DNA of 58,233 nt, filler included, from Dugesia japonica (taxonomy: Eukaryota): the NCBI GenBank assembly GCA_001938525.1. It is 4 parts of 4 records of this genome, joined end to end, with 100 filler letters (N's around TTAATTAATTAA, not from the genome) between each part and the next. Parts side by side here need not be neighbours in the genome. Positions count along the whole stretch, not along the records: positions 48,019 to 58,233 come from MQRL01504011.1; 3 more parts are not named here. One strand, given 5' to 3'. Positions 4,087 through 54,100 of this stretch are shown one piece after another (within the stretch, counting starts at the first letter, position 1; each line of letters begins with the position of its first letter). Position numbers and translations under genes: made by a program. Under the pieces are notes generated by a model that searched no databases, was not told the DNA's origin, and was given only the letters and a program-made list of their open reading frames with translations.

Positions 4087-5209
4087 CAGGGATGCAAAAC
4101 TTTTTATGATCGAGAACCTAATTTTTGCTTTAAATTTTTATGAGGGCTAAGATTTATATATTATGCACTTCATAAATATAAACGTGTTTTATTGAAGAAT
4201 AAAACAAACATATAATTGATCCTTCATATAGAAATTTAATTTAACGGATAAAATTTTTTAATTATTATTTTTTACGGCCAAGAACGCCACAATATCTAAA
4301 TATTTTGGTTTTAATAAGATTGCTGTGATCGAATTTTTTTAACTATTTTTATCAATATCTGGTTCTAATTCGGTAGTAGCGATCATCAAAATATTCATGA
4401 GATTGTTATCACGGAGATTTGATCTCAGACCATTCTTATTTAAGTTCATTATTGAAAACGTTTGCTTACATAAGTATGTACTTCGAAACGTTGAAAATAG
4501 CTGTAGTGCCAAATCTTTAATTTTAAAAGATTTTTTTGACAAAGATTTTGGAAGAATGCTTAAATGTCGTTTTTTTGAAATGCTACTTTCACTTCAGATG
4601 AACACTGAAGATCAATGACTTTTAATTGATATTCGTTAGGAATGTTTTTACGGTGGAATGAAAGGGGTTAAACATGAAATTAAAAAACTTTTTCTTTTCT
4701 TCAAAGTCTTGAAATCGATTCTTAAATTCAATGGTTAATGCTTTAAAAGTCTCTTGATATTTGGAAAACTCACATTGGTATTCTTGTTGAAAGAGTATGG
4801 ATGTTTGGAAAGGAACAAAAATATCAGATTTTAAATGTGATTGAAAAAGTTTAAGTTTTAATTGAAAAGCTGTCAACTCTTGAGACATATAAAAAACAAA
4901 ATGATCTTTACCTTGGAGTCGCTTATTAAACGTATTTAAGTGTCCCATAATGTCTGTAAGAAAAGCCAAATCAGACAACCAGGTTTTATCATCAAACAAT
5001 GTTGTTTCTCTACCTATTTTCATTTAATAAAATCGCGAATTTCAGAACGTAATGCAACAAATCCTTTCAAAACCTTATCTCGGCTCAAGTACCTAACATC
5101 TGTGTGATAGAGAGTATTATAATAATCAGCAATGTTTTCTTCAAGAAACGATAACTGTAGGTGGTTGAGGACCTTAAAACGAATAAAATTTACTGTGTTA
5201 AAAACATAT
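4087..5209 (-). mobile_element. hAT (Buster/Charlie, GTF2IRD2-like) transposon 3' part, degenerate
   Basis: TIR-like CAGGGATGCAAAACTTTTT at 4087. ORF pieces YHTDVRYLSRDKVL, WLSDLAFLTDIMGHLNTFNKRLQG, FRSTYLCKQTFSIMN. Confidence 0.85.
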
Positions 5210-6540
5210 AGTAGGTAGATAGTGGCGCCACGGCACAATTTTTTTAGCGCAATTTGATATCCCCCTTCCCCCATCTCCCCCAGGTGTGGGGGGCTCGGAA
5301 ACTGCTTGCGATTGTGCTATGATTTTTGTGGGATGATTTTTTGTGTAGTTTTTTTTTCTAAGATTTTGGGAATCAAAAAATTTTTGATCGGATCATGTTT
5401 TGTATCCTGAGTGTGTGTATTTTTAATTTTTAAAATTAATGTGTTTGGGTTGTTAAGGGGGTTTATTTAAAGTAGGTCAAGTTGACTTTGGGTGTGTGTG
5501 AAAGAAGGAAATTGGACTCGATGGAGAGCTGGAGATCTTGGAAATAATCTTTGAAAAGAAGATTTGGTTTTGAAGATTTGGTGATAATTCGACAAAAATA
5601 TTGTCTATTTATTGTTTAAAGGACTTATGGTGTGTGGTGGATCGTTTTTCCTAGAAGGGGAATGGCGCCAAGGCACTGTCGTATGAGTTATCGTATGATG
5701 ATTTTTGGGAGGGTGTATGTTTGTAGGAGGTTGTTAGATTTTGTTAGTTGATAGGTTGATGGAAAGTTAATGTGATTGGGAAGATGGTGACTGTCAAATG
5801 TGCTATTATTTTTGATTTTAAGTGCTTGAATTTGATTGGTTGGTTTTTGTATGTAGTATAAGTGCGTTTAAAATTTTTTCGGGAAGTGGAAAATGTTATG
5901 GATAGAAAGAGAATTAATTATCGGATTTAATAAGATTTATTTGAAATTTTTCTGTTGGGAGTGTATAAAGTAATAATTTTTTGAAATCTTTATTTTGTGT
6001 AAAAATGCTGTATTTTGCTCAAAATGATGAATTAGTTGAAAATAATGGTATTTTTGTAAAAAAAATGATGTATTTTTGAGTATTTTTTAGTATTTTTTGT
6101 ATTTTCTTTGAGGAGTGTTTTTGCTATTTGTTTTGAGGAAGAGGGTAGTTTTGATATTTTTGGAGGGAAATTTTTTTGGCGGGAAATTTAAAAATTTATT
6201 TTTAAATAGGGGTAAATTTATTTTGAGAAGACTTTATATTTTTGTATGAGATAGGGCAGTTTTGATATTTAGCATTGGGATTCTATATTTTACATGTTAT
6301 TGATAGTCTCTATATTTTACATGGTATGGACAGTCTCTATATATTAAATGGTATGGGCAGCTTCTATATTTTTCATGGTATGGGTTGCCTCTTTAATTTG
6401 AATGGCATGAAGAGTTTATATATTTTGCATGGTATGAGGGAGTCTCTAGGATATGGGAGACTCTAAGATGGGGCAGTCTCTATTTTTTGCATGGTATGGG
6501 GGAATTTGTAGGATGGTGGAGACTTCAAAGAAGGAGTCTT
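5210..6540. mobile_element. Probable Polinton terminal/subterminal region truncating the hAT
   Basis: Transposase homology stops abruptly at AGTAGGTAGATAGTGGCGCCACGGCAC. Internal repeat TGGCGCCAAGGCAC (~5663), TTTTGGCGGGAAA (~6174), a tandem array, then Polinton genes. Confidence 0.5.
6236..6500. repeat. 27-bp tandem repeat (TATATTTTACATGGTATGGACAGTCTC), about 8 degenerate copies
   Basis: Seen directly; explains the 9-aa periodicity of ORF 6275-6466. Confidence 0.85.
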
Positions 6541-12560: not shown

Positions 12561-13620
12561 GGGAGAGATAAACATTTGTTGACATAATATTATAATACGA
12601 CTAGTGTTACAAAAACTTGAGCAGCCGGCCAATTTGACTGTACGCTGTTCGAGTTACAGCATCGATACGAATTTTTTACTGAAATCGAATGGTTGATAAA
12701 ATATTGAAGAAATTTAGATATTTTAATAGTAGTTTTTTGAGTTTATTTTGATAGCAAAGATCTAATCCCAAGATATAATACCGAAAATCCCGATATTGGA
12801 TGTTCAAATCAAGAGGTAAAATAAAAATTTTGTTTGAGAAAATGAATTAAATTCTCAGTAACATGATTTTTGAGATTTAAATTAATTTTGTCATAAAAAA
12901 TCGAGAACCGGAGAAGTTTTGAAGAAGTTTGGCATTTTTTGACAAGTGGGAGAAGGATTGTGTCGAAGATAAATTGGCATCAACAATTTTTTTTAACGAT
13001 TAATGTAATGAATTAGTTAAAATATTGATAATTTATGGGGGAGGGGCTACCGTTGGTTGACAAGCGGGAAGTTAAAAGTGTCTGAAAATTGTTGACATAT
13101 TAAACGGACATCTCATAATAACTATTGAAAATAATTCGGTAAAGTAATGAAAAAATATTTCCTAAAAAATACAAAATTCTAATTAATAATCAAATTAAAA
13201 TATACAAAAAAATTAATTTTTTAATTAAAAGTTTTCAAATTTAAATCAGTGCTTAAAAGATTTGTTCTCTCCGAAAAATTAATTTAGTCGCATTTGGAAG
13301 AATCAAAAAAACTATTCATGTTTCCAAACTTTCCACAAATTAAACTTAATTAAATTAATTAATTAATTAATTAAGCTTAAATTTATGCATTTTATCTTTA
13401 GACAATTTTGAAATTCTTTTTTCAAAACTAAGCAATTTTATCCAAAATTTTAATTCGTATAGACAGGGATTTAATTTAATTTACTTTAAATTTGATGCAA
13501 AACGTCAGATAATAAGTGCAAGAGAAAAATTCTAACCAATTTGTTCATTAGAATTATATTATTTATTCTAGTTATTAATAATTTTTATCATAAAATAAAC
13601 ATTTCAAATAATGGTGGCAC

Positions 13621-14294
13621 CTGTAAATGAGGCCAAGCAGCTTCTAAAGTTGGTTCATCTTCTTCTGGGTCATACTCCGCTCCCATTGGATTACTTGCTG
13701 GTGGTAGAGTGCGAAATAGATTTGCTGCTAACATTTTCACAATTTCTGGGTAAAGAGGTTCTGTTAGAACTCCTTGATTACTATTTATATACTCGATCAA
13801 TTCGTTAAGAGTTGATCGCTTAATTTCTTTATCTTTGAGATCACTGAGAGGATCAATGGCAAAATCAAAAACAACTGAACATTGTTCAATTTTCTTCATA
13901 AATAATTCTTCTTTTTCCGATGGTGAAGTATCTTTTAATAATGGAAGCTTTTTCAATTCCCGTTTCTGAGATATATTGAACACTGAAGATGCTCTTCTTT
14001 CACGTTTAACAGCTCCACTGCCAGCAATTGTTCCTTCTGCTTGACGAGTTTTGATTAATTGGGTTTGTGGTGGATAAGTAGCTTTAAGAAATTTATGATA
14101 ATTAACAAAATAATTTAAATTACTTTCAACAGGTGCTACAACTTTCTTTTCCGCCTCTTCTTTACGCGGTGATGATTTAGAATTATTCTAACATAACAGT
14201 CAAAAACTTTTAAAACAACAGAAAAATTTTTACATTCATATTAAAAGCAAAAATAAATGAAATTTACTTTTTCTTTTTTGGATTTAAGTGGCAT
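13621..14294 (-). CDS. PPP2R5D: PP2A B56 regulatory subunit (gamma/delta type), 5' part; exons 14268-14294, 14124-14187, 13621-14081
   Basis: MPLKSKKEK...PPQTQLIK...[23 protein letters not shown]...[19 protein letters not shown], with GT-AG introns of 80 and 42 nt in frame. Later exons not found before the contig end. PPP2R5C versus PPP2R5D is not resolvable. Confidence 0.92.
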
Positions 14295-14730: not shown

Positions 14731-17700
14731 CAGGGTTCGCCAACACGTCGACCCAGGGTGACTGGTCGCCCGCGAAGGGTTTGAAAATACCCCGTCACTT
14801 AAAAGTTTCACAATTTAATTTTCCTTATATTAATGTTTAAAATCTTAATTTAACATTTTATTTTTACAATAATAGGGTATTTGTGCAACAATCCATAATG
14901 TATGCATTTATCACGATAAATAGTAAAAATTAATGGTATCGTGTAAACTGATTATAGTAGCTATGCATTGGCATATAAAATGACAATTGCAAAAAATGCG
15001 CAAAATAATTTATCAGNTAGTAGAATTGATGAAATAGAATAAGATATTAAATTTGAAAACAAGCTTGCTATTTACAAGACCGTTGTTAAAACATACCTTT
15101 TTATTTTTATTATTGATTTAGAAATAATTTACGTATGCTTTATTATTAGAATTATATTATTGTTNNNNNNNNNNNNNNNNNNNNNNNNNNNNNNNNNNNN
15201 NNNNNNNNNNNNNNAATTAAGCTGTTAAAATAAAATTTATTTTTTTAGATTTCAATTAAGGTGATAGTTTCAAACTTCAAACACTTGCTACCACGTTTTA
15301 ATACACTCGTGTTTATTTACAATAATACGTTTTTTATAATTTCTACAACGAAACATAGCTGGTATGCTATTGTTAAATTTTTTTTGAAATATAATGAATA
15401 TTTATGTTGGGGTTTTATCTAGGGCGTCGATTTTTTATAATTAAGTCTAGGGTGATTGGCCTAGTAAAACCCCGAAAAGAATTTAATCTGGTGTCTTCAA
15501 AAATCCAGATCTTCGAAATGGAGCCGTTGACTCGGAATTCGAGTATAGACTCGCACTCCTTTAGTTCGGGTTCGTCTTCCGTGACACTTGCTCGACTTAC
15601 GAGACCTACTTATTATTATTTTATAAATTTCCAGTTTATGGAGCGTTTTTGATCTTAATTAATTATGGTATTAATAGTTATGAGATTAATTATCATAAAA
15701 ATAAAAGAATTTATAAGCGAATAACATATTAGGGTTATTAAACTTAACTTTTTACAAATTAATATACAATAATCAATAGAACTAACATAGTCTGAATCCC
15801 GATACGGAGAAAGCATAACACATAGATTGTCTCTTCTTCGGTAGCCATTAACGACTCGAGGGGTCCTTCATAATTTTCCATCTTCAAGTCAGAAATCGTT
15901 GCACCACAAATTTAAATAGAACAATAATTACCGTAATAATTTAGATTTTCTGGTTGACTTCAGTAATTTCAATTGGCGAAGATTGACAATTCTGGTTGAT
16001 TTCACTAATTTTTACTAGTGAAGATTGATTTTTGATGAAAATACATCAGTATTTTGCCGGTTTTCTTCTACACCTTCGTTCATTTCATTGGGTAATATAC
16101 ATTCTTGGTGTTTTTATTGGTCGGTTTATTTTAATTCTGTCACATGATTCTTCTTATTAGTTGGAATTTTGGAATTCTAAAATTTCTGGAGTTTCATTGG
16201 TTAACCTTCAGATCCTTGTATCTTTTTTCGGAGTCTTGGTACGATTTTTTAACTCAAAATTTTGAACTCCCCGATATTTTCTTGTCTATAATTCTTTTAA
16301 CTGCTAATTTTAATTTGACAGAAAACCTTTATTTTTCTCACTTTGTCAAAGATTTAATTTTCTTCTTTAAAATAAATCATTTTAAATCATATGATTTATT
16401 TTATTTAATTAAATAAATTATTTATTTTATTTCTTTTAAAATATTAATTAGATGTTCGTTTTTTTCTGGTCTAAAATTGATTTAATTTCGAAGTATTCTT
16501 CCACTTATTAATTCATTTAATTTATTTTCTCTTTCTTCGATTAATATGCTTTCTTTAATTTTGCCTAATGAATTAGATTCTTGGCTGTTATTTATTATTT
16601 TCTTTCTTTTCATAGCTGCTTTTTTTACTACTTTTTTTCTTTGATCTTCTTATTTCTACGTTGTTTCGTGCTGTAATGCTAGACTCTTCTTATTATCTTA
16701 AAGATTTTAACTATCTAATCTGGTTTTCTCATCCATTATTTCTGTTTTCAACTGAATTATGTTTTTCTTGGGTCTGAATTCTTTGTTTTCTTTTCTTATG
16801 TCAATCTTTAGAATTTCAAGTCCACTTAACACCATTTTTATTTTCTGTACCATGTGTTTCACTCCAACATTTATACCCTTTATTTTAAAATGAGTAAACC
16901 AACTATCAACCACAAAAACGTAAAAACTTATAATTATCATAGTGAATAGGAAGAAAATTATTTTTTATCATGTTAAAAAATAAATGTTCCTGTTTTATTT
17001 GCAATACTGTAGTAGCTTTGACAAAGAAAGCAAACGTTGAAAGGCATTATCTTGCAGTTTATAAAAATTATGAACAAGATTATTCACGTGGTACGGCGTT
17101 AAGAAAGGCCAAAGTTCAACAACTGGAGGGAGAGTTAACTGCGCAGCAAGATAGTCTCTTAAAGAACAACACCAACTCAAAGAGTGCTACAACTGCATCA
17201 TTCAAAGTTACTGATACTTTTATCAAACATAATAAACCGTTTCAAGATAGAGAAATATGGTAAGAGGCTTTTATTTAAGCCGAGAAGTGTTGTTTCAAAA
17301 TTTTAAAAAATAAATCGGAAATAATGACATTCAATAAAAATTTGTCGTTATCGAGAAATACAGTTATGCGTAGAACAGAGGGAATCAGCCAAAACTTTGA
17401 AGATGTTTCATATAAAAACATTAATAAATGCGTGGTATTATCACTACAATTTGATGAATTATCAGACTTTATTGGCACTGCACAATTATGTGTTTTATTC
17501 GAATGGTATTGGAGTATATGTCGGATACAGAAGAACTATTAACTATTATTCCAATGCATGAACGCACACGAAGTCAGGATAACTTTGATTTATTTAAAAA
17601 TTATATTGCTCGCACAAATTTTCTAATCTACAAATTAGTATTAATAACCACGGAATGATCGTGGTTAATAACTCCTGCAATGATCGGTAATAAAAGTGGC

Positions 17701-23930: not shown

Positions 23931-26900
23931 TGTTGGGCTGAAATAGTCTATTTAATGATATAAACCATTTGGAGTAAAACCGAGAAAAGAATTGAGAATT
24001 GGAAATGTTCGAGAAATGATATTTAAGTCAGAACGAAAAACGAATGAAATAGAATAACAATGAACATCATCAAATCATCAATGAATTACTTGGTAAATAA
24101 TAAAAAGAAATATTATTAAACGAACTTACAAATTGAAACCGAAATTAGAAAACGAGCAGTGATATAAGAATTCCGAATAAAACAGATGCTCATACAAAGA
24201 ATAAAGTTGTAATTAGAACATCGATGCTCTAAGAAATATTTATTAAAACCAATAAATAATTAATTAAAATGATTGTAAGAAAATGGTAATTCGGTAATAA
24301 TAAGAATAAATGCCACCAGACAAATCGACACTTAAAGATAAAAAAGTGAACATGCAGAAATGATTAATGTTAGTGGAATCAAATAAATTAAAGACGAACA
24401 AATTGTTAAAATAAAATGATAAAAGAAGAATTAAATAAAAGACGAATAAATACTAAAATAAAATGTCGAAGAAAAGTGAATAAATAATAATGCTCAAAAA
24501 AATAATATCAATTGAGTTAAAGCTCAGAAATCACACCGATAGTGGTCAGATATAAAAGAGTTTAAATTAAATAATGATTGATCGAAATGAAGGATTGAAA
24601 GAAATGTTAAATGGAAAAGAACATATATTATTATTTACAATTTATTTAATTGTTATACAAGTAGAAATATAAAGAAATAGTTATTATAATATTATAAAGT
24701 AATTAAGTTAAGAAAGTAGAATTAAAACTAAAGTATTATACTAAAAGATTTTAATAAAATTGAAACGAACAGTTAGAAAAGAGTATGAAATAAATTGCTA
24801 TCATTATTATAATGTCAAAATATTAATATTATTAAAATAATGTAGTTAGGAAAAATCAGATTATTATAATAACGTATTTAAATAATTTAAATGAAATATT
24901 ATTATCTTGTAATTATTAATTTCATTATTATTAATTAAATATTATTATTTGTAAAGAAGGAACCAGAATTTTGAGAAGAAAGTTATATGTAATGAAAAGT
25001 GATAAAAGTTAAACGAGAATTAAATATTCGTAGTAAATTATGTAAATTTATTATGGAAATATCGGTAATTATATCTGAAATACAGAGTTTCCAAAATTAT
25101 TATTTTAAGCGATAAATATTATTAAAAATATTATTATTTGATAAATATATTTAAATTTGATGAAAGAAATAGAGATTGTAATAAAAATTATATGAGAAGA
25201 AAGAGGAGTTAATTTTATGTAAAAATTAATTAAGAGTATTTGATAATTTATATTTATCCATGTAGTTATTTGTATTTATAAATCGTTGACAAGTTTCAAA
25301 AATTATTATTTTTAACCAAAAATATTATTTTTTGGTTCGTGCAGGTTTATTGCTGGTAAATTTAATGATGCCGTGCAGGTATAAACAAGTGTTTATCGTT
25401 GCAATTTTTTGTAGAAATTGCTTTTCTTTAAGTCAGGTGAGCACAGNNNNNNNNNNNNNNNNNAGCATTAACTACACAAATTATAGAATTCTTTATGTGT
25501 AGGGTGAGCACCGCAAATGTGAACAAATCTACAAAAATCTATGATGCCGAGTGAGCACCAGTAATCATATGGAATCACTAACAAAGCATGAACACCGATA
25601 TGAAAAAATAAGTATGACTAAATATAGTCATCTATATAGAATCTGCGAGTAAGCACCGCGCGATTCTGTAAATATTGAAGCCGACACCCACCCACCTTGT
25701 CAATATATGGTGACAGAAAATGAGTATAAAAGAAATAACAAATTTCACAAAAAACTTACTAATTTCTCTCTTAAAAATTATTATTGATACGCTTATTAAC
25801 TTATCGTTAAAAGTTATAAGTCGTTATATTATTTCAATTTTTCGAAAAGAAATTGTGACAAAGTAATTTTATTAAATTGTTATTATTTATAAAAATATAT
25901 AAACGTAACACTGAGATGGTGGTCCTCATTGACTAGCAACGCTGGCAATGATGATCATCAGGAGTCAGAGATCCGGTGTCGCGAGATCATCCACCAACGA
26001 GAGATTTATAAATATGATGATTATGAGAGATATATGGATATGATAGATGTTAGCAACCGTGAGAGATATGTGATTATGAGAATGGTTAATGATTTAATGA
26101 TTATGAAATATGTTAATGATTCTGAGAGGTAAATGATTACGAAATATGTTAACGACTATGAGCACTAAATGATTATGAGAGATTCTTTGATTATGATACA
26201 GAGATGTTGATGTTGAAAGAGATATATGTTCATGAGTAGAGGCTAATAAATAAGATAACTAAAAGAAATATTAAACGATAGAATGATCATGGTAATGAAG
26301 CTTGGGTTAACATTGTTATATCATTGATGTGTGGTGGTTGAACGTTGTCTAAGCACTAATATAGTTGTGACTACAATGATTGAATCCTCATACCTATTAC
26401 CAATGTATTTATTTATGAAAAATATGAATTTAGTTTTCTGATATCGTTGAGACTTATTATTTCCTTTGTCAAATTATTTTGATGTTGATATCGTTATGTA
26501 ATTATATTAATAATTTTTCATAAATTATTATTACCCTTAGATAATTGATATTTTGTTGCAGTCGACATCAGGAGGGAGATGAGTTTTCCAGCGAAAAAGT
26601 AGTTATGAATTTATGTAGGAAGATTCCAGAAGAAATCGATTGATTATAATATATGATTGAAGTATGACCTATTTAATTCATGAAGGTCCAACTTCTTCTA
26701 CCATGAAGAGTGGTCGATAGTCTTTTGAGGCAGGGTCGATTTGTATTATGAAACTTCAAATTAGAATCTAATTAGGTATTATGTTAATGTTACTTTGGAT
26801 AAATATTTGTTTTATAAATCTATATATAATTTAAACATGGGAATATGTTTCTTTATTTAGATGACTCAGATTATAACAGTGGCAGGAGCAGAAATATCAT

Positions 26901-27668
26901 TATCTGTTACAGAGTAGAGTTTTAATATCACGAGATGCAATGATACACCTGGCGATCTAGATCCATGGTGGGTCACCCAGGACCAGTTATGCGCTAAAAA
27001 TAAAGAAATCAGTTCATTGCGTGCGCCTTTAACACGACAAAAGGAGCGATTTACTCCTGTATGGCAGATATAAAAGACAAATGGTGTTCAATACAAAAGA
27101 AATTAAAGAGCGAAATCATGGAACTACAGCATAAAAACGCACAGCTCCGAGACAAAGTAATTAAACTGAAAGTACGCGATCTCGCTTTGTCACAAACTTG
27201 CCGCACCATGGCGGATATCATTAAGGCGTATGCGGACAGAGAAAGTGTATTGATAGCGACTGTTCGAACATTAACGCAGGCATTGAAACCAGTGTCAGAA
27301 GTAGCCAAAGAAAGTCATCGAATCGGATGAGTTACAAACATTGATTAGAATAAAAGTATGTACAGAATGTATTTTGAATTTTGACTATAACCATAAGTTA
27401 ATAATGATTGATATTGATTTATTTTAAAACAAGAACCGGATAAAATAGAATTAGAAAACACAAGACGGGATACAGCATAGTCTCACTGATTCCGGGAATG
27501 GGGGATCATGTTGCTAGAGAAAGCAATGCAAAATTATGTGGTTACTAAGTATCGTCCCCCAGACAAAAATTATATTTAAGAGAAGAAACAATTAAGACCG
27601 AGAGATTAATAATAAAAATCAAGAAAAAACAAAACTAAAACAACATCAAAAAGCCTAGTAACCCAACA
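23931..27668. mobile_element. 3738-bp TGTTGGGCTGAAA...ACCCAACA insertion, giant solo-LTR-like
   Basis: Perfect 4-bp TSD AATT (23927-23930 and 27669-27672); 7-bp terminal inverted repeat; no transposase or RT motif seen. Confidence 0.8.
27061..27330 (+). CDS. Orphan coiled-coil protein carried by the 3.7-kb element
   Basis: 89-aa ORF followed by AATAAA at 27349; appears homologous to 51121-51354. Confidence 0.55.
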   Translation: MADIKDKWCSIQKKLKSEIMELQHKNAQLRDKVIKLKVRDLALSQTCRTMADIIKAYADRESVLIATVRTLTQALKPVSEVAKESHRIG

Positions 27669-29625: not shown

Positions 29626-29990
29626 CGTAGCGACGGGCGGGCAGGAACGTAATCATCACAAGCTAGTGACTTGCGTTTACTAGGAATTCCTTGCTCGTGT
29701 GAAATAATTACAATTCACAAACCATGTTACGACAGTTTCACAAGATTGCCCAACTATTTCTACATTGGAACTGCCATTGTAGCGCGCGTGCGGCCCCGGG
29801 CATCACAGACCTGTTATTATTGATTTTTTCATTTAGCTAGACGCTATTTATTCTTAGAAGTTATTCTTTACAAATTAGAATAAATACACTATTTAGCAAG
29901 TTAGATGCTCGTTCGTTATTGGAATTAACCTGACAAATCTCCACCAACTAAGAGCGGTCATGCGTTACCACCCGCCGAATCAAGATAGAG
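29626..29990 (-). pseudogene. Degenerate 18S rRNA 3' fragment
   Basis: The plus strand carries 18S reverse-complement landmarks GTAGCGACGGGCGG, ATTGTAGCGCGCGTGCGGCCC, GGGCATCACAGACCTGTTATT, CTCGTTCGTTATTGGAATTAACC and CCACCAACTAAGA. Confidence 0.9.
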
Positions 29991-30029
29991 TTGTTAAACT
30001 TCCCATTTTGTTGGTATAACTCATCTTGA

Positions 30030-38067: not shown

Positions 38068-41591
<3,524 letters not shown>

Positions 41592-42137
41592 TAATTATAA
41601 TTTAAATATTTCAAAGAAACTATAACGATTAAATACAGTAAAACAAACTTTACACTTTAAATTTCATTATTTATTAAATTGAAATTAAAAAACATTATTC
41701 TTCCAGAAAAGTTATCGAAAATTAAAAGTCATTAAGATTTATTAAAATAAAAAATCACAAAGATTTTTAATAATTATATTTTATAAGTCAAAACAATATT
41801 AATAAAACAACGACAGTCTTACTGTTGTGAATAATTTATCAAATTTCGTGCGTTGGATAATAAAAGGAAGCTTTCGTTACATTTACAAAATTTATTAATT
41901 ATGTTTTTTTCAAAATCTTAGTTTGGGAAACGTTGTGACGTTAATTTAGTCAAAAATTAAAATCATTTTGATGAATGCCTCCGTCGGTGGTGGCCAACTG
42001 TTCGTAAATTTATGGGAAATACTTAAAACTATGAACTGATATAACTTGTTCTGAAGTTTCCATAAAAACATAAATATCTTCAAAACAAAAAGTTAAATTT
42101 TAAAAGAAATTATTAAAACATAACTATATTTTAGTAA

Positions 42138-42300
42138 TGTTGGGATTTTATATAGGTTGGTTGGTTTTTTAATNAAGTCAACTGTGGTCGGCTTAGTAAA
42201 ACCCTGCTAAAAATTTAATCTGGTGTCCCCAAAAATCCAGATCTTCAGAATGAAGCGGATGACTCGTAGCCCGTTTTTGAGTACATACTCAGTTAAGACT
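42138..42300. mobile_element. End of the TGTTGGG element family
   Basis: Similar to 15405-15560 (TGTTGGG.TTTTAT.TAGG...TAGTAAAACCC...AATTTAATCTGGTGTC..CAAAAATCCAGATCTTC). Other end not found. Confidence 0.75.
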
Positions 42301-42639
42301 GCGCTCTACTCGTCTAGAGCAAGGTATATGTACACCAGGAATGGAGGATATACTGAACCGAGATATAATAGGTTACCAGAGCACCTACGGTCAAGGAGTG
42401 CTGGGCACGTTTCAAAAGCCCCGATCGGTATGATCCACTCTTATGCATGTCATGTAGCAGGTGCAACTGGGTGTCTTGACTATCCCTTCACCAGAAACGG
42501 TTTTTACTTGATTGTAATTTCCGAAAGCGCCTCGTCACGCAAAAGCAATTCGCTTTGGTAAACTGTGAGAAGCACCTAGCCTGGTCTCATGACAAATTTT
42601 TTTGCTGGTTTGTCCTAACATACTTGCGCATAATATGAT

Positions 42640-43360
42640 TCAGATATTGAAGTGTTTTTAAGATAATTCAAACGTGCAAAATAATAGATTCAAATGATAA
42701 AAGGATTTCACAGTGTTAAAATTTGGATAGCGCAGTATGATTTTCAGATATGAAAAATGATTTCGAGTTTAATTGTTATAGTTAGGTGTTCAGATATGAA
42801 AAAAGATTTTGAGTTTACTTGTTATAGTTAATTGTTCAGATATGAAAAAAAGAGTTCAAGTTTAATTGCTATAGTTGATTGTTCAGATTTGAAAAAAGAT
42901 TTCGAGTTTAATTGTCATAGTTAATGATGCAGATACGAAAAAGGATATCATGATTAGTTGCCATAGTTAAAGTCATGCATAATTGTTCAGAGATAGAAGA
43001 GAATTGAAGTTTAATTGTTTAAAAAAAAGGATTTTTAGTAGTTAAATTCAGAAATAAGTACTCAGATATAAAAAGGATTTAGGTTCAATTGTTTTAATAA
43101 AAAAGGATTTTTCATGGTTAATTTCACGCATAATTGTTCAGATATAGAAAAGGATTTAAGTTTAATGGTTCTTACGAAAAGTATTGTCTCATAGTTAATT
43201 TTACGCATAATGGTTACAAAATAAAAAGGATTCCACGCTTAAAAGCTTTTATAAGAAAGGGATTTTCACGTTTAATTATTCAAAAATTAAAAGCTTAAAT
43301 TCTTTTCATAAGAAGTGAATTTCATAGTTGATTCCGCACATAGCTGTTCAAAGATAAAAT
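42640..43360. repeat. Tandem arrays (~46-bp then ~70-bp units) sharing CAGATAT(G/A)AAAA...GTTTAATTG...ATAGTT
   Basis: Seen directly. Confidence 0.8.
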
Positions 43361-43619
43361 GTGATTAATAAGATTCAAAGGCTTCGACGAGGACGTCGAA
43401 TTTGAACAAACCCGGATGGGGAAGTAACGATAAAATTATCTCCAGGGTATGGCTAAAATAAAATACTTACTGAAACCAAAATAAGGGGATACAAAGATAA
43501 ATAATGAGGTAAAAGCGTATGGTTGGGGATGGAAAAAAATATTGTTACAGGTACAAAGCATTCATTGTAGCAAGCACATTCAAGTCGGAAATCGTTGCAA
43601 CAAATAAGCACTATCCAGG

Positions 43620-46600
43620 TATAAAATTTCTATGATTATAGTGAAAAAGATAAAATCAACTTGGTAGCATTATACCTAAAAGAAAATGCTTTAAAGGTTT
43701 ACCGACAACATAGACAAGAAACTTATGAACCATTCAAGTCAAGGAAGGAAGTCAAAATTGCTGGAAAACTCATCATTATACTAATCAATGTACAATCAAA
43801 TATACTTATTGTAGCATTTGCGGTCGGAAAAACCATCCTATGGATAATTGTTGGCATAGATATTGTAACAAATTCGGTAAGAAAGGTCATCCTGAAAAGA
43901 GATGTCTACTCAGAAGAATCAGAACAGAAGCGGACCAAAATTCAAGAGACAATAACAAAAGTAGCGAAACTCATAGCCAACAAAGTATGAACCAAAGTAA
44001 AGAATCAACAAAATTGTACATGCTAAAAACCAAAGAACCCGAGAGCCTAGGAATTTATGAAGAATTACCAAGGACTCAGTGAGTACAAAAATGTTACAAT
44101 TGCAACAGACAAGGGCACCAAGCTAAGGAATGCCTAACAATAAATATGATATGTTATGTCTGCGGAAAACAGGGGCATATTGCAAGATTATGTCGACACA
44201 GAATAGACATCGCGAGATCAAGGAATGTAACTGAAGTCGGAAGAAGTCGTAATTACGAAGAAAACCATTTTCCAATTAAATATGAACAATGTTACCGAAT
44301 TTGATAAGATAAAGATGATGAAAATAAAAGGAACAAAGAAGTAACATGAATCCTGTCCAAAGAAAACTGCCGGTTACGGAAACAAATGAAATGTAATCAT
44401 CAAAGAATCACTCGACTAAGAGAAGCCCTAGCCGAATTAAAGCTCAATGGAGGAGAAAAGTCACCAGAGGAAATCATGTAAAATGACAATAAAGTAGCCC
44501 CAGAAGATAAAGCAAACACGGAACCTAACGAAGAGGAACAAAATGAGCAAATAGCCGTAATAGAAAGTCAAGATGGTGGATTTAGCCTATCATTAATTGT
44601 ACGAATCAACAACCAACCACTGAAAACACTTTTAGATACTGGAGCATCTCGATCAGTATTGAATATAAAAAATGTATCCTGAAACAAAAGAATAAAAATA
44701 AAACCCTTTACAACCAGAGCAACAGGGATTAACGGGGAAACCGTGCAGATCATTGGAACATTAGAGTGCAATGCACAACTTCAAGAAAAAACCATAAAGC
44801 ACCAATTCCTTGTAACGAAAACCAATGTAGATGCAGTATTGGGAACAGATTTAATGCCGAAATTGTTAATTGGGACAAAATTGGATTTTACTACATTCTA
44901 AATCGAATTGGAAAAACCAAAATCAGAAATGATAAGCATGTTGCAAGTAAGTCCAGAAATCCCTAATTTAAGAAAAGACCACAACCTTTGGGAAGACCAA
45001 TATCAAAATTTTCTAACTAAAAAAACTATGAAAATAAAAACCAGAGATATCAATAACGAATTAGAAACAGAAATAGATTGGGTAAATAAAATCCAGGAGG
45101 TCATCAAAATAATAAGTAAAAATAAACAACTGATTTCAGCCAGAACAACGGAACTAATCGGAGCTCTACATAATTTTAAACCAATGGTTAGTTAAGAACA
45201 CTAAGTGTTATTAGAGGAGTTAGTATATAAACAAGGTCAAATGTTATTAGGTTTAAAACCAGAATCATTTAAAATAAAATTTTTATGGCTTTGCAATAAG
45301 AAAAAACTGATCATATCAGGAGATTATCGCTGGTCTGATATAGCGGAATTGATTAAAAATAACAACCAAGAACCAAGCGAACCGACAGACGAAAAAACGG
45401 AAGAATTATATTTCGGTTCTAGACTTATTGACAGCGAGTCCATGGACCCAATACAATTAGGGGGACTCTAGAAAAATGCTGGAATCAATATATTCGTCCA
45501 AAATAAAGAGCATGGACGAAATAACCGACGTCTAAATCGATTAAAGATAAGCTTGAGGAAGAAAGGTATCCGAGCATTAACATTATTTAACGAACATATA
45601 GTATCAAAGTGGCAAGAACCAAAATTGGCAATGATTAAGAAAACAAAGTATGTAAAGAACAATGAAGTAGAAAAAATACTGAACACATATAAAGACTTAC
45701 TACGAACGATAACTACGCTGATACAAGAATTAAACAAAATCACTCATTAGGTAAGTCTAATACCTGAAGAAACAGAAGAAAAAACCGTGTTAGTAACAAG
45801 GATACTAAAACTCGGAGAACAAGAACGGCGGATCGTTATCAGTATGCAAAAGTGCAAAATAAGTAAAAAGAAGAGACATATAGAAGAAAGTTGTTGGGCA
45901 AATAAAATATGCCACTGCTGTGGAGAAAAGGGGCACATATGGCAAAATTGAAGCAATAACCGGAAAAAGTCTCGCCACAGTAAGGAAGCAGAACAAGAAA
46001 ATATAGTGACCGACTCAATTAAACCATGCATGCTACAGGTGGAAACTGTACAAATAATAGAACCAGATGACTTCACAGAAGTAGTGTCAAAAATGAAAAA
46101 GGCAAGAAAAAAAATTAGAAAAATGAAAAGCAGAAGCCAGCTATCAGAAGTAGACACTCTAAATATACAGTTAGCCGAAATAGACCAAACATATAGCCAA
46201 GAACAAGTAAACTATATAACAAGGTTGAACTCAAATCATGAGTCGAAATTATCGTCAAACAACGTTCTTACCGATCAGATGGACGAACTGTTATGGATAT
46301 TAACGTTACAACTAAAGGAGTTGGAAGAGGTAACCAATGCAGTACAGAAAATATCGGTAGAAACAATAGTAGAAAATTTTCTAAAGTCAAGGCTATCGAA
46401 ATTCAGAGAACAAGAAAAAAGGACGAAATTCGCAATGAAATTGTTGTTAAAAACCTGGAATGAAACGGAAGAACTAATAATGAAACCCACGATACCTAAA
46501 CAAAAAGAAAACTATAAGTATAGTGAATGTGATAAACTTGGTCATCTGGCAACCTGATGTTGGAAAAATAGACTATGCGAATTTTGTGGGGAATCAGATC

Positions 46601-47500
46601 ACCCAAAGAAACTATGTTGGAAAATACCATGCAAATTATGCTGTAAATTAGAACATACAGAGAAACAATGTAAAAAAAGAATCGGATATCGAACCTATCT
46701 TTAGACGGGAGGGTTGGACGAGATAGCTTCATGTGGGTTAAAATGAAAAAATGTGGCCACAAAGGACATACTGAAATAGTATGCCAATCGGACAAACAAT
46801 GTACTAAGTGTAGATGAAGAAGACATCTGGCATAACAATGTGGTATTCCTAGAGGTTTCAACTGTGGTAGAGCCGGACACACCATGAGAAGGTGCCGATT
46901 TAAAGCAAGGAGAGAAGACTTAGCTATAATAATAGATAGATCAAACAAGTTATGTATGTTACAAGTAACCAAGGAAGAGGAAACAGTGCAAATGCCTGAT
47001 ATTTTGAATGAAAACCAATTAATGACACAGGTAGATCAGGATAATCACCGGACAGTACCAGAAGCCTGGCAGAAAATGCTTAATACATACGATGACCGGA
47101 TACCCAGCTTAGAGGAAGCTTTACGGCGGAGTCTAGTGCAATGCCAAAATCTCAAATTTTTAGCAGATAAAGCAATGGGAGAAAAAAGAGATGCAATAAC
47201 ATCGAGGGATACAGAGATGGCCCACCTACAAAGAAGAATATCATTCAGCCAAAACCAAATATCGCGATTAGAAGAGTCATAACATTCAAGCCAAATACAA
47301 TGTCAAAACTTTAAACTATTATTTGAAAAAACCATGGAAGAACAGAGAGCAACTAGTGGAAAATTGTTAGAAATAATTGAGGAAAGAAAAACATTCTACA
47401 AACAGTTAACGGATCAACAACAGAATGGGAAAACCAGAGCAGACGGAAATTTAAATATGAGCAAAATCTATTAGCTTCAAGCTCCAAAACCAAATGATAA
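43620..47500 (+). pseudogene. Degenerate LTR-retroelement gag/protease-like region with about 13 CCHC knuckles and a coiled-coil tail
   Basis: CSICGRKNHPMDNC, CYNCNRQGHQAKEC, CYVCGKQGHIARLC; protease LLDTGAS...VLGTD (~44630-44850); then CHCCGEKGHI, CEFCGESDHPKKLC, FNCGRAGHTMRRC and others. Confidence 0.8.
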
Positions 47501-47800
47501 CGAAATCTGGAACAAAGCGGGACCAACAAAGCCCATTGCAATAATAAGCCCCATCTGGCAGAACCAATCATTCAATGAACAATCAGAAAGCTTGCAATTT
47601 AAAAGATTCTGGTCAAGAAAAAATCAGAGATCCTGAAAATTTAAGTTGAAAAATCTTTATGAGACTCAGGAAAAAGATACAAGGGCTTGAAGGTTGATCA
47701 ATAGGTTTGGAATCNAAAAATATCAACCAATAAAAAGAACTCACATGACGTTCAAGCCAATGGAAACGTCAGAAAAGTCGTACGATTCCAAATAACCAAT

Positions 47801-47918
47801 GAAAGAAATGGGGGAGTGAAGAAAAACCGGTATAAATACCGGCTTAATTTTCACAAAATATATACACTTTTTATCAAGGAAATACGGAAATTAAAACGAA
47901 ATTAACACAAAAGGTGAT
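47801..47918 (+). mobile_element. Possible polypurine tract and start of a 3' LTR
   Basis: GAAAGAAATGGGGGAG followed by TG at 47817 and a TATAAATA; cut by the contig end. Confidence 0.45.
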
Positions 47919-48018
47919 NNNNNNNNNNNNNNNNNNNNNNNNNNNNNNNNNNNNNNNNNNNNTTAATTAATTAANNNNNNNNNNNNNNNNNNNNNNNNNN
48001 NNNNNNNNNNNNNNNNNN
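47919..48018. other. Artificial contig linker
   Basis: N44-TTAATTAATTAA-N44. Confidence 0.95.
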
Positions 48019-48403
48019 ATGGCTTTATAGGGTTTAATTGTGTGTATTTAATAACTTTATTGGGTTTATTGTGTTTATTTAACTATATGTTGAGATTATT
48101 ATATGTATTTAATAAATGTATAGGGTTTATTGTGTGTATTATATGAATATCTTAAATTCTTTGTGTATATTATGTAAATATAGTAAGTTAATTAAGTATA
48201 ATATGAATATATTTGGTTAATTGTATGTGTATTTATTGACTTTATAGGGATTATTATATGTATTAGATGGTTTTTGGGTTTATAGTATGTATTATATGAC
48301 AATATTGAGTTTATAGTGTGTATTATATTACCTTATTAGGTTTATTTGGCGTATTATATAACTCTATAGGGTTTAATGTGTGTTTCTTTAGTGGTTTTAT
48401 ATG
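48019..48403. repeat. Degenerate ~30-bp minisatellite (GGGTTTATTGTGTGTATTATATGA), resuming at 52127
   Basis: The same repeat is present on both sides of the 48404-52126 insertion. Confidence 0.75.
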
Positions 48404-48981
48404 TGTTGGGGTGAAACAACCGGTTATTTAAAAGGAAAAAGAAGACGAAGGATTGGAATTACATAATAACACTGAAAAGGCTGGGGGGGAAAACGAATTA
48501 ACCAAAATATAGAACAAAATCGATAAGCTACTATAATACCTAGGGTAAAGGAAAAAAGCAAGAAAAATGCAGTGATATAATCATTAATTAATATCCGGTA
48601 AATTAACTTTCAAACTTTTAGTCACCTAGTTGGTATTTATTCGATCAACAGAAGAACATTACATACAAACTCAGTTAATATTCATTCCCGTTGCAGCGAA
48701 GAGAAATTTAATAATAAGTAAGCATGCGTGAATCATATTTGTAATTTATTTAATGTATTATGGTTGTTAAATTATTTCTCAATAAAATTAATAATAAAAT
48801 TAATAATAAAATCATTTTTGTTTATTAACTAATTTTTGATATTATTTAGAGAATTATGCCAATCCGATTGACAGCAATTGGGTTGATGATTACTTAGTGT
48901 TTCAATAACACTCTAGGTAGTTGTGAATTTTTAAGTGTCCGCATTTTTGGCTATTGCATTACACTAGTTTGTAACTAATAA

Positions 48982-49599
48982 TCAATTAGCGTTGAACATG
49001 TGAAACCGATCACAATAATCTCCAATCGATGAGACCTGTAAAGTCGTTCCTTGACTAATTGCTATTGCTAATTTTGTTCTCACCTATTTTGTGTTAATGT
49101 CCAGGAACTCAAATAGAGTCATTAAAATTCATACCACCAACCACACCACATCATGGATAATTCACACACGATCTGAATAGCAATCACCGAATGCAGAATA
49201 TAATGTTGTCGCTCTATCCTGGTTGTACAAGACACAGCAACGCAAAGCATACACCACAGCCTTCACTAAAACTGCTATAAGGCATGCAAACCCCATTGCT
49301 GACACAGACACGCTTAATTTGAATGCCGCCGTAATTATTAACGATATAGCACCTATCAGTAGTGTAGTAGTATATTTCGGCATAAGTAACAATGAAATAT
49401 TTTGGGAATATGTTTAACATGAAATAATTTTTATTGTCGGCTTGATCACTTACCAGATTCAGGATGCGTGCTCTATAAGTTTTAATGACGTTGTTGTTAG
49501 GATTGCACTTATGAGTAATATCGTTAAAATCACCATGGCTAACATTACTATTGTGTTATAATTGCATACAGTTTCATGACTAATGCCATCAGTATTCAT
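48982..49599 (-). pseudogene. Putative four-transmembrane protein, decayed
   Basis: One frame from the ATG at 49599 with six internal stops and four hydrophobic segments. Confidence 0.45.
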
Positions 49600-49763
49600 T
49601 ACTGTTGATTTAAAAACCACATTATATTTATATTAATTAATATATATTGATTATTGTTAATGATATAATTTTATCACTATAGAGATATTCCGAAACCCAC
49701 CGTATTATCTAACACTCTCAGTAATACCACAGTGGTTATTTCATTAGACGGAAAATAAGTATA

Positions 49764-50248
49764 ATGGATATCGTTAAGTATGTCGTAATTATTACGATCA
49801 TCATCACGCCTATCATGGTTATTACGTTTCTTATCAGTGTCACCGATGAACAGTTTTTTCTTTTCTTTTATGCTACAGTCATCTATCAATACCAAATTAC
49901 CTGTATTAATACGGATTTATGGGATATCGTTAACGGCAGAGTCACGGCTTATATGATGGCGTTTATTAAATTTTGGGATTGTGCAGGAGGCATAATGAGT
50001 TCCTTTTTGAGTATATAAATTCAGGCAATGCCCGGTGAATTAAGGAAGTCTCTGAAGGTGATATTGAAGCAACGTTAGGCCTCTCGATTAAGGCAATTGT
50101 TGGCCCACTTTCTGACCCGAGGTAAGGGAGAACACCACGACAAAACCGATTAAGCTGGTTTCTTCGAAATGTTCCCACTAAAATTTCAGTTGGACATTGA
50201 CGAAGCGTGACCACATTCCTGCGAAATATAATAACTGACATGCTTTGA
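49764..50248 (+). pseudogene. Putative membrane or secreted orphan protein, frameshifted after 50018
   Basis: Hydrophobic N-terminus VVIITIIITPIMVITFLISV; AATAAA at 50253. Confidence 0.35.
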
Positions 50249-50402
50249 TTTAAATAAAGACGAATAAATAGTTAAATCATCATTCTGGATTTATTTTATA
50301 GTAACTGGCTTATTCTTTTGTTATTTTATTAAAAATTATTTCATTATTTAATTCAGTGTATTTAAATATTGATCATAACTGTCGAAAAATAATTATAGTA
50401 GG

Positions 50403-50810
50403 ATGGAGTACAAATGGGGGGGTACTATTCGACGCACGGGGCGTACGGTGTTTAAAAAATACACCAACCCCCATGACCGTAATGCGGGCATCCTTGTTGA
50501 CTATTCAAATCTGTCTAGTGAAGATGCGGATAATGATAGAGAATGGGCTGCGGCTGAGCGCCAGGACTTTTATCAATGGAGCGGCCCCGATTGCACCCGA
50601 GAGGTGCTTCACCGTGTCACCATCATAGATCCGGTAACTAACCAGGTTACTAGTACTTGGCGGGACGGTTCTGCCTTGGTGCCCGTGCCGGTCGCTCACC
50701 TACCACGGACTACTAGATTCACCACAGATATAGGTAACACTTTATGGGACCTAAGGAATATCTCTAGCGGAGATGAATCGGAAAATAACCCGCCAAACAA
50801 TGATGCTTAA
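50403..50810 (+). CDS. Orphan 135-aa protein
   Basis: Intact ATG-TAA ORF, much more GC-rich than its flanks; acceptor-like TTTAATTCAG at 50356; AATAAA at 50855. Confidence 0.6.
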   Translation: MEYKWGGTIRRTGRTVFKKYTNPHDRNAGILVDYSNLSSEDADNDREWAAAERQDFYQWSGPDCTREVLHRVTIIDPVTNQVTSTWRDGSALVPVPVAHLPRTTRFTTDIGNTLWDLRNISSGDESENNPPNNDA

Positions 50811-51120
50811 AGTCAATGAATGATTTTTTTTACTTGTTGGTTGTTGAAAAAAATAATAAATGTATTAAGAAATTTTATCTTCCCGTTCTTTTAACTGATA
50901 AAGTCCACTTAATTGATTGCGTAATTCTGTTAGTTGATCTTTTTATATTAATTGTTTCAAATTAGTTGAAGTTTTGCTTGTTAGTTAACCACAAATTTCT
51001 ACAATGTATATTTTGCAATGCATTCATCACTGAACAGAACCACGGCTTCGACCAAAAAGATGAGGGATACCAGCGAGGACCAGGAAATGACTTGGGACCT
51101 CTATCGCCTCGCGAAGCGTC

Positions 51121-51354
51121 GCCAATAGTAAGGTACTTTGGTATAAGTAAAAATGCATTGCCTTCAAAAAGAAAGCCGAAGCCTCACACACCCAAGAGAG
51201 AGTGTGGAAAGGGCAAGTTGAGTTCTTCGCTGAAATTATCCGGTTCCACCCTGACCGAGAGAATAAATTGGTCAGCGACATTTTGCATCTCAAGGAGAAA
51301 ATGTCTCTCAAACCTATGATGATAGCTAAAAGCACTCAAACTCCACGGCCGTAG
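51121..51354 (+). pseudogene. Coiled-coil ORF homologous to 27061-27330 (one in-frame stop, probable 5' frameshift)
   Basis: FAEIIRFHPDRENKLVSDILHLKEKMSLKPMMIAK versus MADIIKAYADRESVLIATVRTLTQALKPVSEVAK; AATAAA at 51380. Confidence 0.55.
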
Positions 51355-51561
51355 ATACCCAGTATTATATGACTCTGTGAATAAACATTTCTTTATGTTA
51401 TTGTGACTTCGTTTTCATTCGTCTATTCCTTTTTAGTTAAAATAAAATTGCTGTTATCAAATATTTGGACTAATATAGTTCATTGATGTTTTATCATTAA
51501 TATTTCACTCGTTTCAGTGCCACGTATCCAGTTGCCCCATAGTCTAAAACGATGCCATTGA

Positions 51562-51879
51562 CTAATTCAGAAACTGCTACTTGAGAGACACCTTAAACGC
51601 CAATCTGAACGTGCTTTGCTCCATCATTTAACGCGACGAAATAGACTGATAAAGCGGTTAGACGTGATTGTAAAGAAACAGAATGACTTAGCTGAACACA
51701 CAAAACAGCTCTTGCAGCACAAGGTCGAATTTTTGAAGCGTTACATTACCAACCAGTCGCGCCAACTGGGTAATGCTTCATATCTCAACTGGGATGATAA
51801 CGATGACTTAGTGTTGTTCGACTTTATACCAGAAGACCCGACCCAGTGGTTAGACCCGGGTGCTCTCAATGATTTTTGA
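51562..51879 (+). CDS. Orphan basic/coiled-coil protein with acidic-aromatic tail; start probably frameshifted from the ATG at 51552
   Basis: Frame is open from 51562; acceptor-like CTCGTTTCAG at 51517. Confidence 0.45.
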   Translation, partial: LIQKLLLERHLKRQSERALLHHLTRRNRLIKRLDVIVKKQNDLAEHTKQLLQHKVEFLKRYITNQSRQLGNASYLNWDDNDDLVLFDFIPEDPTQWLDPGALNDF

Positions 51880-52524
51880 ATTATAAAATAATATACAGTA
51901 GTATTAGTAGTTCTTGTTCATTTTATATATATTTTCTTTTGGGAAAATAAGGAACCCGAATTAAAGGTGTACGAGTGAGTACCTCTCCTAAAGGCCAAAG
52001 GTCAACCACTCTGCGCTGAATATCTAATCTAGGGCGCTGGATTTTATTCTTGAAAGGGTACCCCTGAGGGCCGTTTTTCCCCGGCCAGCATCGTTTTTCA
52101 CCATCAATTCAGATGGGACTCCAACATTTGTATTATATGATTTTATTTGGTGTATTGTTTGAATTATAAGAAGCTATATTGTTAATTGTGTACATTTTTA
52201 CTCTATACGGTTTCATGTGTGTAATACCCATAATCAAATAATTATTTCTAATGGTAATAAATTTCAGATTAATCAAATTAATGTGACTACATCTAAGAAA
52301 AAATGAATAAACCTATCATAAACGGTTAAGGGATTTTATATTAATGAATAAAAATTGAGTAATTAAGTAATCTTAAAATATTTATTTCATAAACGTTTTT
52401 CTATAAATCTTGCATTTATATTTAATTATTTAACCTATTCTATATTTTACTGATAATTTTAAAATTAAATTAGATTTCATGCGTATTTTAATTCATGTTA
52501 TATTAATAAAGAAAAAGTTTCGAT

Positions 52525-54100
52525 TAAAATTCTTTAATTCTTGTGCGGATGGTTCTGTATGCTTCTCCTATATATGTATCCTTACAAAAAGTACATGTTA
52601 TTTTGTAAGTGATATTTTTCTTATTGGATATATTTCTACCATCACAAATACATTTGAGATCACAAAATTTCTGTCTTGGTTTCTGTAATTGGATACCCAT
52701 AGATGCTTGCGTTTTAAAAATAATTCATGGATTGTGTTTGAGTTTTTATTTTTTTATTATATTTGGGATGACTTGGCTACATTTCTCATTAATAAAAGGT
52801 AATTTAGTTACTGTGTTTGTCTTTTGTTTGTTTTTATTAAATTTTGTATTCGAGGATAAATATTTAGATACAATTTTATTTGGATAAACATTATTTATAA
52901 ATTTATTTTTTATCAACCTGAGGGAAGTCAATCTCATTTCTTCATTTGAAGATAGTCTTTCAGCTCTTATTCTTTCACCCTTGATTATTCTAATTTTCTA
53001 TCTGATGGTATTATTACTACTCCAGGGTAATATGTGTTCACTGTGAAATGGTTTCATTTGTAACTAGATAGTTAATAATTAATCAGGTTTCTTTTGAATT
53101 GAAGTGTCCAGAAAAGAAAGTCAATTGACTCCTCTATAGTAAATTTTTTATTAGTATTAATACTATTGGCTAATGTGCTGAAATAAAATTTAATAATGAT
53201 CTCAAATAATTTGCCAAAAGTTTGCATAATGAAGTAGATGGAGTATCAGAAGCATTGATAATAGGTCTTCATTTCATTGTTGTTTTATGATCTTTAGGAA
53301 CACAGTGCAAATATGATGGAACTGGTTCATGACATTTAACTGCTAAAAATAAAGATTTTATTAGGTCTTCATATTTCTCTGCAATTTTAATCAATTCTTT
53401 ATTAAATTTATTCTCTTCAGTAATTGGTAGTCTTTTATGAGTGATAGTCTCATAATTATTCAGATGTCCAGAAAAGAAATCCTTGTATATCGGTTTAGGC
53501 AAAGCTAACAATTAATTTTTTTTGTCCGTTGGAGTGATGACAATTGATTTTAAATTCTTCATTTCTTTGATAATTTTGTTCTCATTACTTTTAGATTTGA
53601 TATTCTTGTTATATTTGTAAGTTTCTAAAAGTTTATTTTTGATTTTTTCTATATTGTTATCAATTTCTGTAATTGTACGTTTTTATTTCCCGACTGAATG
53701 ATTGTTTATACTTCTACTTTGATGAAAAAAATTGAGGAATTATCAAATATTTCATATGTTGTGTTTTCTAGTCTGTGCAATTGGCATTTGAGACTGTAAA
53801 TGGAAGCTTCAATCATTGCAATATTGAATAAGTCAGAGGCTCCTAAATTTGTAGGAATATAACTTGATCCTTTTATTTTATAATTCTATTTGTCTGTTAG
53901 TAAATGTATATTCCGTTAAATTTTGGAAAGGAAGAACAGTTGTATTGCTTATAACATCTTAGTGTAAATTTATTTTCATTTTGATTTTTTCTTCTGTTTT
54001 AGTTTTCTCGGAAAGTAGAGTTCTCAATTTCTTTTGTTTGCTGAGATCATTGATGTTTTTAAATTTTCTATATATTTCAAATAAGCATATTAAATGATTG
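52525..54100 (-). mobile_element. Penelope-like element, internally deleted (RT N-terminus plus endonuclease)
   Basis: TPTDK, PSYLHCVPKDHK...RPIINASDTP, and the GIY-YIG motif YIGEAYRT near 52540-52580. Confidence 0.85.

Follow-up and report, generated by a model that had tools for sequence, protein, structure and literature searches.

Analysis of the window, the whole stretch of 58,233 nucleotides of Dugesia japonica DNA (filler included), showed a unit, designated U3, that carried six mini-genes distributed over both strands. The unit, its ends and its mini-genes were located as follows.

48404..52126, plus strand: unit U3, 3,723 bp, TGTTGG...CCAACA ends, likely a solo LTR
48400..48403, plus strand: left 4-bp target-duplication candidate of U3, with a 3/4 match to 52127-52130
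48023..48403, plus strand: 31-bp minisatellite split by U3, continuing at 52127-52220
48982..49599, minus strand: mini-gene A, 205 codons, four hydrophobic segments, six in-frame stops
49764..50018, plus strand: mini-gene B1, 84 aa, open, one hydrophobic N-terminal segment
50028..50210, plus strand: mini-gene B2, 60 codons, two in-frame stops
50403..50810, plus strand: mini-gene C, 135 aa, intact
51060..51354, plus strand: mini-gene D, broken by a frame change and a stop
51562..51879, plus strand: mini-gene E, 105 codons open, no in-frame ATG
51941..52126, plus strand: GC-richer 3' terminal region of U3, carrying a 36-nt motif (52046-52082)

Only C and B1 were unbroken from ATG to stop in the U3 copy (four of the six frames were broken), and the frame of B1 was uncertain, other copies having single-base gaps inside it. 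The GC content of the blocks was 0.36-0.50 (0.58 in the 22-codon start of D) versus 0.15-0.30 in the spacers. Fewer in-frame stops were found than in base-shuffled DNA for A (6 versus 14.8), C (0 versus 6.6), the second part of D (1 versus 4.6) and E (0 versus 6.1), with P values that are optimistic because each frame was the best of six. The GC contrast and the stop depletion agree with an earlier sequence-only reading of this DNA, which had described GC-richer, coding-like blocks alternating with AT-rich spacers.

Ends of U3 and the sister units

Two further units with related terminal motifs were found in the window.

23931..27668, plus strand: sister unit U2, 3,738 bp, same end motifs, perfect AATT/AATT duplication, decayed ORFs
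~26861-27330, plus strand: last ORF of U2, with an AG before it and AATAAA after it
15405..16869, minus strand: third unit, U1, 1,465 bp, same 5' motif, perfect TTTA/TTTA duplication

All three units had TG...CA ends with a short inverted repeat (TGTTGG/CCAACA). A 15-16-nt 5' motif occurred three times in the window (U1, U2 and U3), each time paired with a CCAACA end, and was absent from 20 shuffles. The 4-bp duplication of U3 matched at 3/4 positions only and is weak alone, since among 64 TGTTGG/CCAACA pairs 3 reached 4/4 and 8 reached 3/4. At the right end of U3, the summed contig depth in the DNA-like run X1 fell from 15,764 in the last bin to 68 beyond, and one X1 contig joined both U3 flanks without the unit, as an empty site. 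The 3' region of U3 (51941..52126) was weakly similar to the U1 3' end (a score equalled by 0 of 200 shuffles); alignment of the 3' ends of U2 and U3 was not above chance (62 of 200 shuffles as good). The 5' part of U1 resembled the tail of a polyprotein frame. A repetitive, decayed coding-like block was also seen within U2 at 25900-26400.

U3 contained no gag, RT or integrase, and a scan for RT, protease and knuckle motifs found none. There was no primer site or internal region after U1, U2 or U3, no gag-pol attached to U3, and neither a primer site nor a purine tract at the U3 ends. TG...CA ends, 4-bp duplications and the lack of an internal region together give the appearance of a solo LTR, and 4-bp duplications around solo LTRs are described for a tapeworm (PMC4558846, in part). 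U3 is therefore read as probably the solo LTR of a large Gypsy-type retrotransposon, with a modular cassette of small accessory genes in the U3 region of that LTR and with this copy in decay. A full element would have inserted, and later recombination between its two LTRs would have left one. The label "LTR" was given from the ends and the duplications, because the data examined held no full-length element with two such LTRs. The sequence-only reading had placed the cassette inside one LTR-like element, which holds for U3 as a TG...CA unit of its own, with its ends and target duplications, and fails for the neighbouring gag/protease element at 42138-47920, within which the cassette does not lie.

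Alternatively, U3 could be complete in itself: a non-autonomous element, bounded by 6-bp inverted ends and mobilised by a Gypsy-type integrase, in which each gene has a small promoter and a poly(A) site of its own, in the manner of a compact DNA-virus genome. Such an arrangement would suit intronless genes on both strands with AT-rich spacers and ends without a primer site or purine tract, and also the gag element at 42138, whose beginning is a related end in reverse orientation and pieces of which occur in U1. It is nevertheless unlikely, as the inverted match is 6 bp only and the two ends, like those of an LTR, belong to different motif families; the 3' motif is crossed by RNA reads of relatives, and the likeness of the U1 5' part to a polyprotein-frame tail is what is seen when an ORF runs into the U3 region. 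Polinton/Maverick and Ginger-type DNA transposons have long terminal inverted repeats and polymerase, capsid or integrase genes; no inverted pair of at least 40 nt linked the ends of U3, and no such Pfam family was found.

Relatives, copies and transcripts of the mini-genes

When the frame running through B1, B2, C and the beginning of D was compared with 1.84 billion proteins by HMMER, two of them matched, P0003 and P0004, each a single sequence on a short contig. P0003 (94 aa) matched C (E 2.6e-10) with 35 of 86 residues identical (41%) from the same start Met. P0004 (60 aa) matched B2 (50028-50201; E 1.4e-5) with 26 of 58 residues identical (45%), from the same start Met to nearly the last residue. 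This match shows that the block at 49764-50248 is two genes, B1 and B2, and the five mini-genes counted by the sequence-only reading become six. As one frame, block B held 6 stops versus 10.6 in shuffled DNA (P=0.086). The C-terminal part of D resembled the final ORF of U2; this likeness, equalled by 1 of 2000 shuffles, was the sole standout among the 7 pairs tested. The two outside relatives that begin at the same Met, together with the likeness of D to the last ORF of U2, indicate that the mini-genes were once real genes.

No Pfam match was obtained for any mini-gene, and the PDB held no sequence match for A or B. Word-index homologue searches returned none for C or E, and for B2 the query alone; P0003 gave no usable hit in the Atlas, and E gave only unnamed clusters with low recognition. 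No match emerged when viral and metagenome contigs were scanned at the motif and protein level. The structure model of C had a pLDDT of 41.

Several candidate identities were rejected. A small-GTPase reading of block B, from a motif likeness, had no Pfam or PDB hit and concerned a block that comprises two genes, and a WW-like start of C had no Pfam support. A tetraspan family for A found no Pfam or PDB hit, and Foldseek, at E<=0.001, matched no structure to the model of A, which had a pLDDT of 52. A paralogous relation between B2 and D was not supported (1502 and 1685 of 2000 shuffles as good), nor was the likeness of P0004 to the PP2A-B56 exon of the window (E 0.13, no Pfam support).

A total of 3,449 contigs of X1 matched the stretch examined, and the run was classed as DNA-like from contigs that covered spacers as well as genes. 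The summed contig depth, which is not copy number, was lowest in U3 over A, a rare module, at 19-28 for most of its length. It reached 66-245 in B, 200-680 in C and 730-2,970 in E, and among the mini-genes was highest in D, the most abundant module, at 4,100-5,400. The contrast between modules was more than 100-fold and was repeated in X11 and X14, where spacers were covered as in DNA and coverage was not counted as expression; X9 covered AT-rich bits only. A second copy, a 918-nt X14 contig over 49571-50418, carried the start of A, B1, B2 and the start of C in the same order with 92 differences. Two weak joints skipped A-B2, with sides that were short and AT-rich. The content of the unit is modular, and it has many related copies with very uneven module abundance.

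Differences between copies inside the ORFs fell 15/16/20 at codon positions 1/2/3 (p=0.23; 51 sites in the best 40 rows of each table). The listed differences, mostly private to the U3 copy, gave no sign of selection. This spread fits neutral decay in this copy and says little about active copies.

The mini-genes might also be unrelated captured or decayed fragments, with acceptor and poly(A) motifs that arose by chance in AT-rich DNA. Four of six broken frames, the presence of AATAAA in 16-22% of comparable 60-mers and the lack of a Pfam, PDB or fold match are in keeping with this, but it is highly unlikely in view of homologues that share the start Met (and, for one of them, the end point as well), the depletion of stops, an order conserved in another copy and the relation of D to the last ORF of U2. 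The pattern is a real feature of this DNA and is read as a decayed cassette of accessory genes that probably lies in an LTR. The claim of accessory mini-genes in an LTR-like element is supported by the unit ends, the target duplications, the outside relatives of two genes and the second copy in the same order.

Expression was examined in four raw RNA runs of the same species label (X2, X3, X6 and X7), of which 6-25% each was read, at 80% likeness. Depth was zero over A, B1, B2, C and E in the four runs, in which no host gene served as positive control, and for D the reads were few, partial and confined to two of the four. Most matching RNA reads touched only one of two places, the 36-nt motif or an AT-rich repeat (48781-48814), and then continued into unlike sequence. 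No splice joints, leader, start or end pile-ups or poly(A) pile-ups were seen in these runs, in which five genes had no reads. The U3 copy and its close relatives were not detectably expressed in these four samples; with no host-gene control, and with planarian LTR elements repressed by piRNA and freed from that repression by piwi knockdown (PMC8532177, in part), the absence of RNA is limited to these samples.

The 36-nt motif at 52046-52082 was the main part of U3 present in RNA reads. It was common to very many genomic copies with unlike flanks and occurred in RNA reads of related elements. An Rfam scan of 41500-53000, which includes the motif, gave no match, and folding of the U3 3' region was no better than that of shuffles (z -0.92).

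Splice-acceptor and poly(A) signals

The pyrimidine-AG sites named by the sequence-only reading were all present, with acceptor-like AG ends at 50356 and 51517 in U3 and at 26561 and 26860 in U2. In U3 they correspond to TTCAG at 50352-50356 upstream of C and TTTCAG at 51512-51517 upstream of E; a further TTCAG, absent from that reading, ended 3 nt before the ATG of B2. TTCAG was found within 60 nt upstream of 3 of the 6 starts (B2, C and E) versus a background of 6-7% (p ~0.006), and the looser TTYAG likewise before 3 of 6 versus 17-18% (p ~0.09), both being post hoc values for motifs picked after looking at the sequence. The same reading had three plus-strand blocks ending at AATAAA. The sites were there, at 50253, at 50855 downstream of C and at 51380 after D, but their frequency (3 of 6 stops had one in the following 60 nt, versus a background of 16-22%, p ~0.15) was not clearly above chance. 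The same-strand gaps between plus-strand genes were 9, 192, 249 and 197 nt, and the AATAAA-to-AG spacings were 103 and 137 nt.

These distances bear on the proposal of the sequence-only reading that a polycistronic cassette is cut by spliced-leader trans-splicing, with a poly(A) site after each gene. All four gaps are below the 300-nt operon threshold of parasitic flatworms (PMC12582326, in part), the AATAAA-to-AG spacings are near the 100-nt peak in Macrostomum (PMC8629364, in part), TTCAG precedes 3 of the 6 starts, and a leader on some retrotransposon transcripts has been proposed (PMC12582326, in part). The proposal is distinctly unlikely all the same: the four RNA runs had zero reads on five genes, no leader and no poly(A) pile-up, AATAAA was not clearly enriched, B1, D and A were without TTYAG, and B1 and E were without AATAAA. 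Trans- and cis-splicing share acceptors (PMC12582326, in part), so the acceptors cannot tell one from the other and the sequence is unable to separate them. A wider form of the proposal, also distinctly improbable, would be a lineage of giant LTR retroelements with a swappable accessory operon in its LTRs, which the host spliced-leader machinery would resolve into single mRNAs, each solo LTR being a portable multi-gene expression cassette.

For the preferred reading of U3 as a solo LTR, expression of the plus-strand genes in active relatives would depend on splicing to the acceptor that precedes each gene. Complex retroviruses reach their accessory genes by cis-splicing from an upstream viral donor, and this would be the simplest route here. 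The genomic RNA of a retroelement must read through the U3 region to the terminal repeat, and cis-splicing is preferred because strong internal poly(A) sites would cut that RNA short of the repeat; the internal AATAAA sites may be leaky or unused. By analogy with the accessory domains of Burro elements, the proteins are predicted to be host-modulating or regulatory accessories.

Known elements and neighbouring features

In MMTV and HIV, an accessory ORF (sag and nef, respectively) lies in or overlaps the LTR and is reached by splicing. Each has a single gene there, in contrast to the array of modules in U3, in which several genes are followed by a possible poly(A) signal.

Burro-type elements carry accessory ORFs (PMC6431247). 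Burro/GYPSM1 of dugesiid planarians is alike in being a very large Gypsy-type element with tandem repeats and accessory ORFs, present in thousands of copies in an AT-rich genome, but its extras are domains (MATH, BIR, BCL2, ankyrin and env) in or just before a polyprotein of 4,900-5,100 aa (PMC6431247). U3, compared here with published descriptions, differs from Burro in having its mini-genes inside the terminal unit. None of the MATH, BIR, BCL2, ankyrin, env and RT-RH-IN domains was found in U3, as expected of a solo LTR. The plant Tat elements Ogre and Retand share LTRs of several kb (1.9-6.5 kb in Ogre), tandem repeats and additional ORFs of unknown function, antisense in some cases (PMC6431247; PMC11963269; both in part); as far as these excerpts describe, the additional ORFs number one or two and lie in the internal region, whereas U3 has six inside the terminal unit. 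Spliced-leader-resolved operons of flatworms likewise have short same-strand gaps and an AG acceptor before downstream genes (PMC12582326, PMC8629364; both in part). Those operons hold conserved host genes with read support in the parts of these sources used, in contrast to the U3 genes, which are mobile and for the most part broken and which, apart from the few partial reads on D, had no reads.

The accessory genes that giant retrotransposons of planarians carry can have effects on the host, the Burro1 IAP region being reported to protect stem cells in a 2026 paper (PMC13465017, in part). A multi-gene cassette inside an LTR, if true, would come in two copies per insertion and survive as solo LTRs, and the solo LTRs would form an extensive reservoir of small orphan genes that lack annotation. 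Were trans-splicing to resolve the cassette, a mobile element would be using the operon machinery of its host. In the literature covered, which did not extend to the original Burro paper or Repbase, no multi-gene cassette within such an LTR was described; the repeat libraries of the cited papers may already hold U3.

The neighbouring element at 42138-47920 was a decayed gag/protease-like element with six full CCHC matches and one looser, an aspartyl protease (Pfam E 4e-7), and 46- and 76-bp tandem repeats upstream. The frames scanned contained only the knuckles and the protease, and on the coding strand no RT motif was convincing. The left end of the element was ~80% identical to the U1 3' end, yet antisense to the gag frame, and U1 shared 15883-15911 (same strand) and 16196-16311 (inverted) with it. 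The geometry of the end at 42138, homologous to the U1 3' end and antisense to the gag frame, is unaccounted for by a plain LTR model and counts against the solo-LTR reading, as do the failure of the U2 and U3 3' ends to align above chance and the lack of a paired copy in the data examined. At the other end of the element, a purine-rich run followed by sequence like the 5' motif of the units was seen at 47801-47830 and may be the element's own 3' boundary.

Elsewhere in the window, all on the minus strand, were a eukaryotic 18S rRNA fragment (29799-30016, 100 bits) and host-gene exons for a proteasome-type AAA ATPase (38068-38900) and a PP2A B56 subunit (13591-14187). The window was AT-rich, which is compatible with planarian A/T content, over 70% A/T being given for a planarian genome (PMC11410931, in part).
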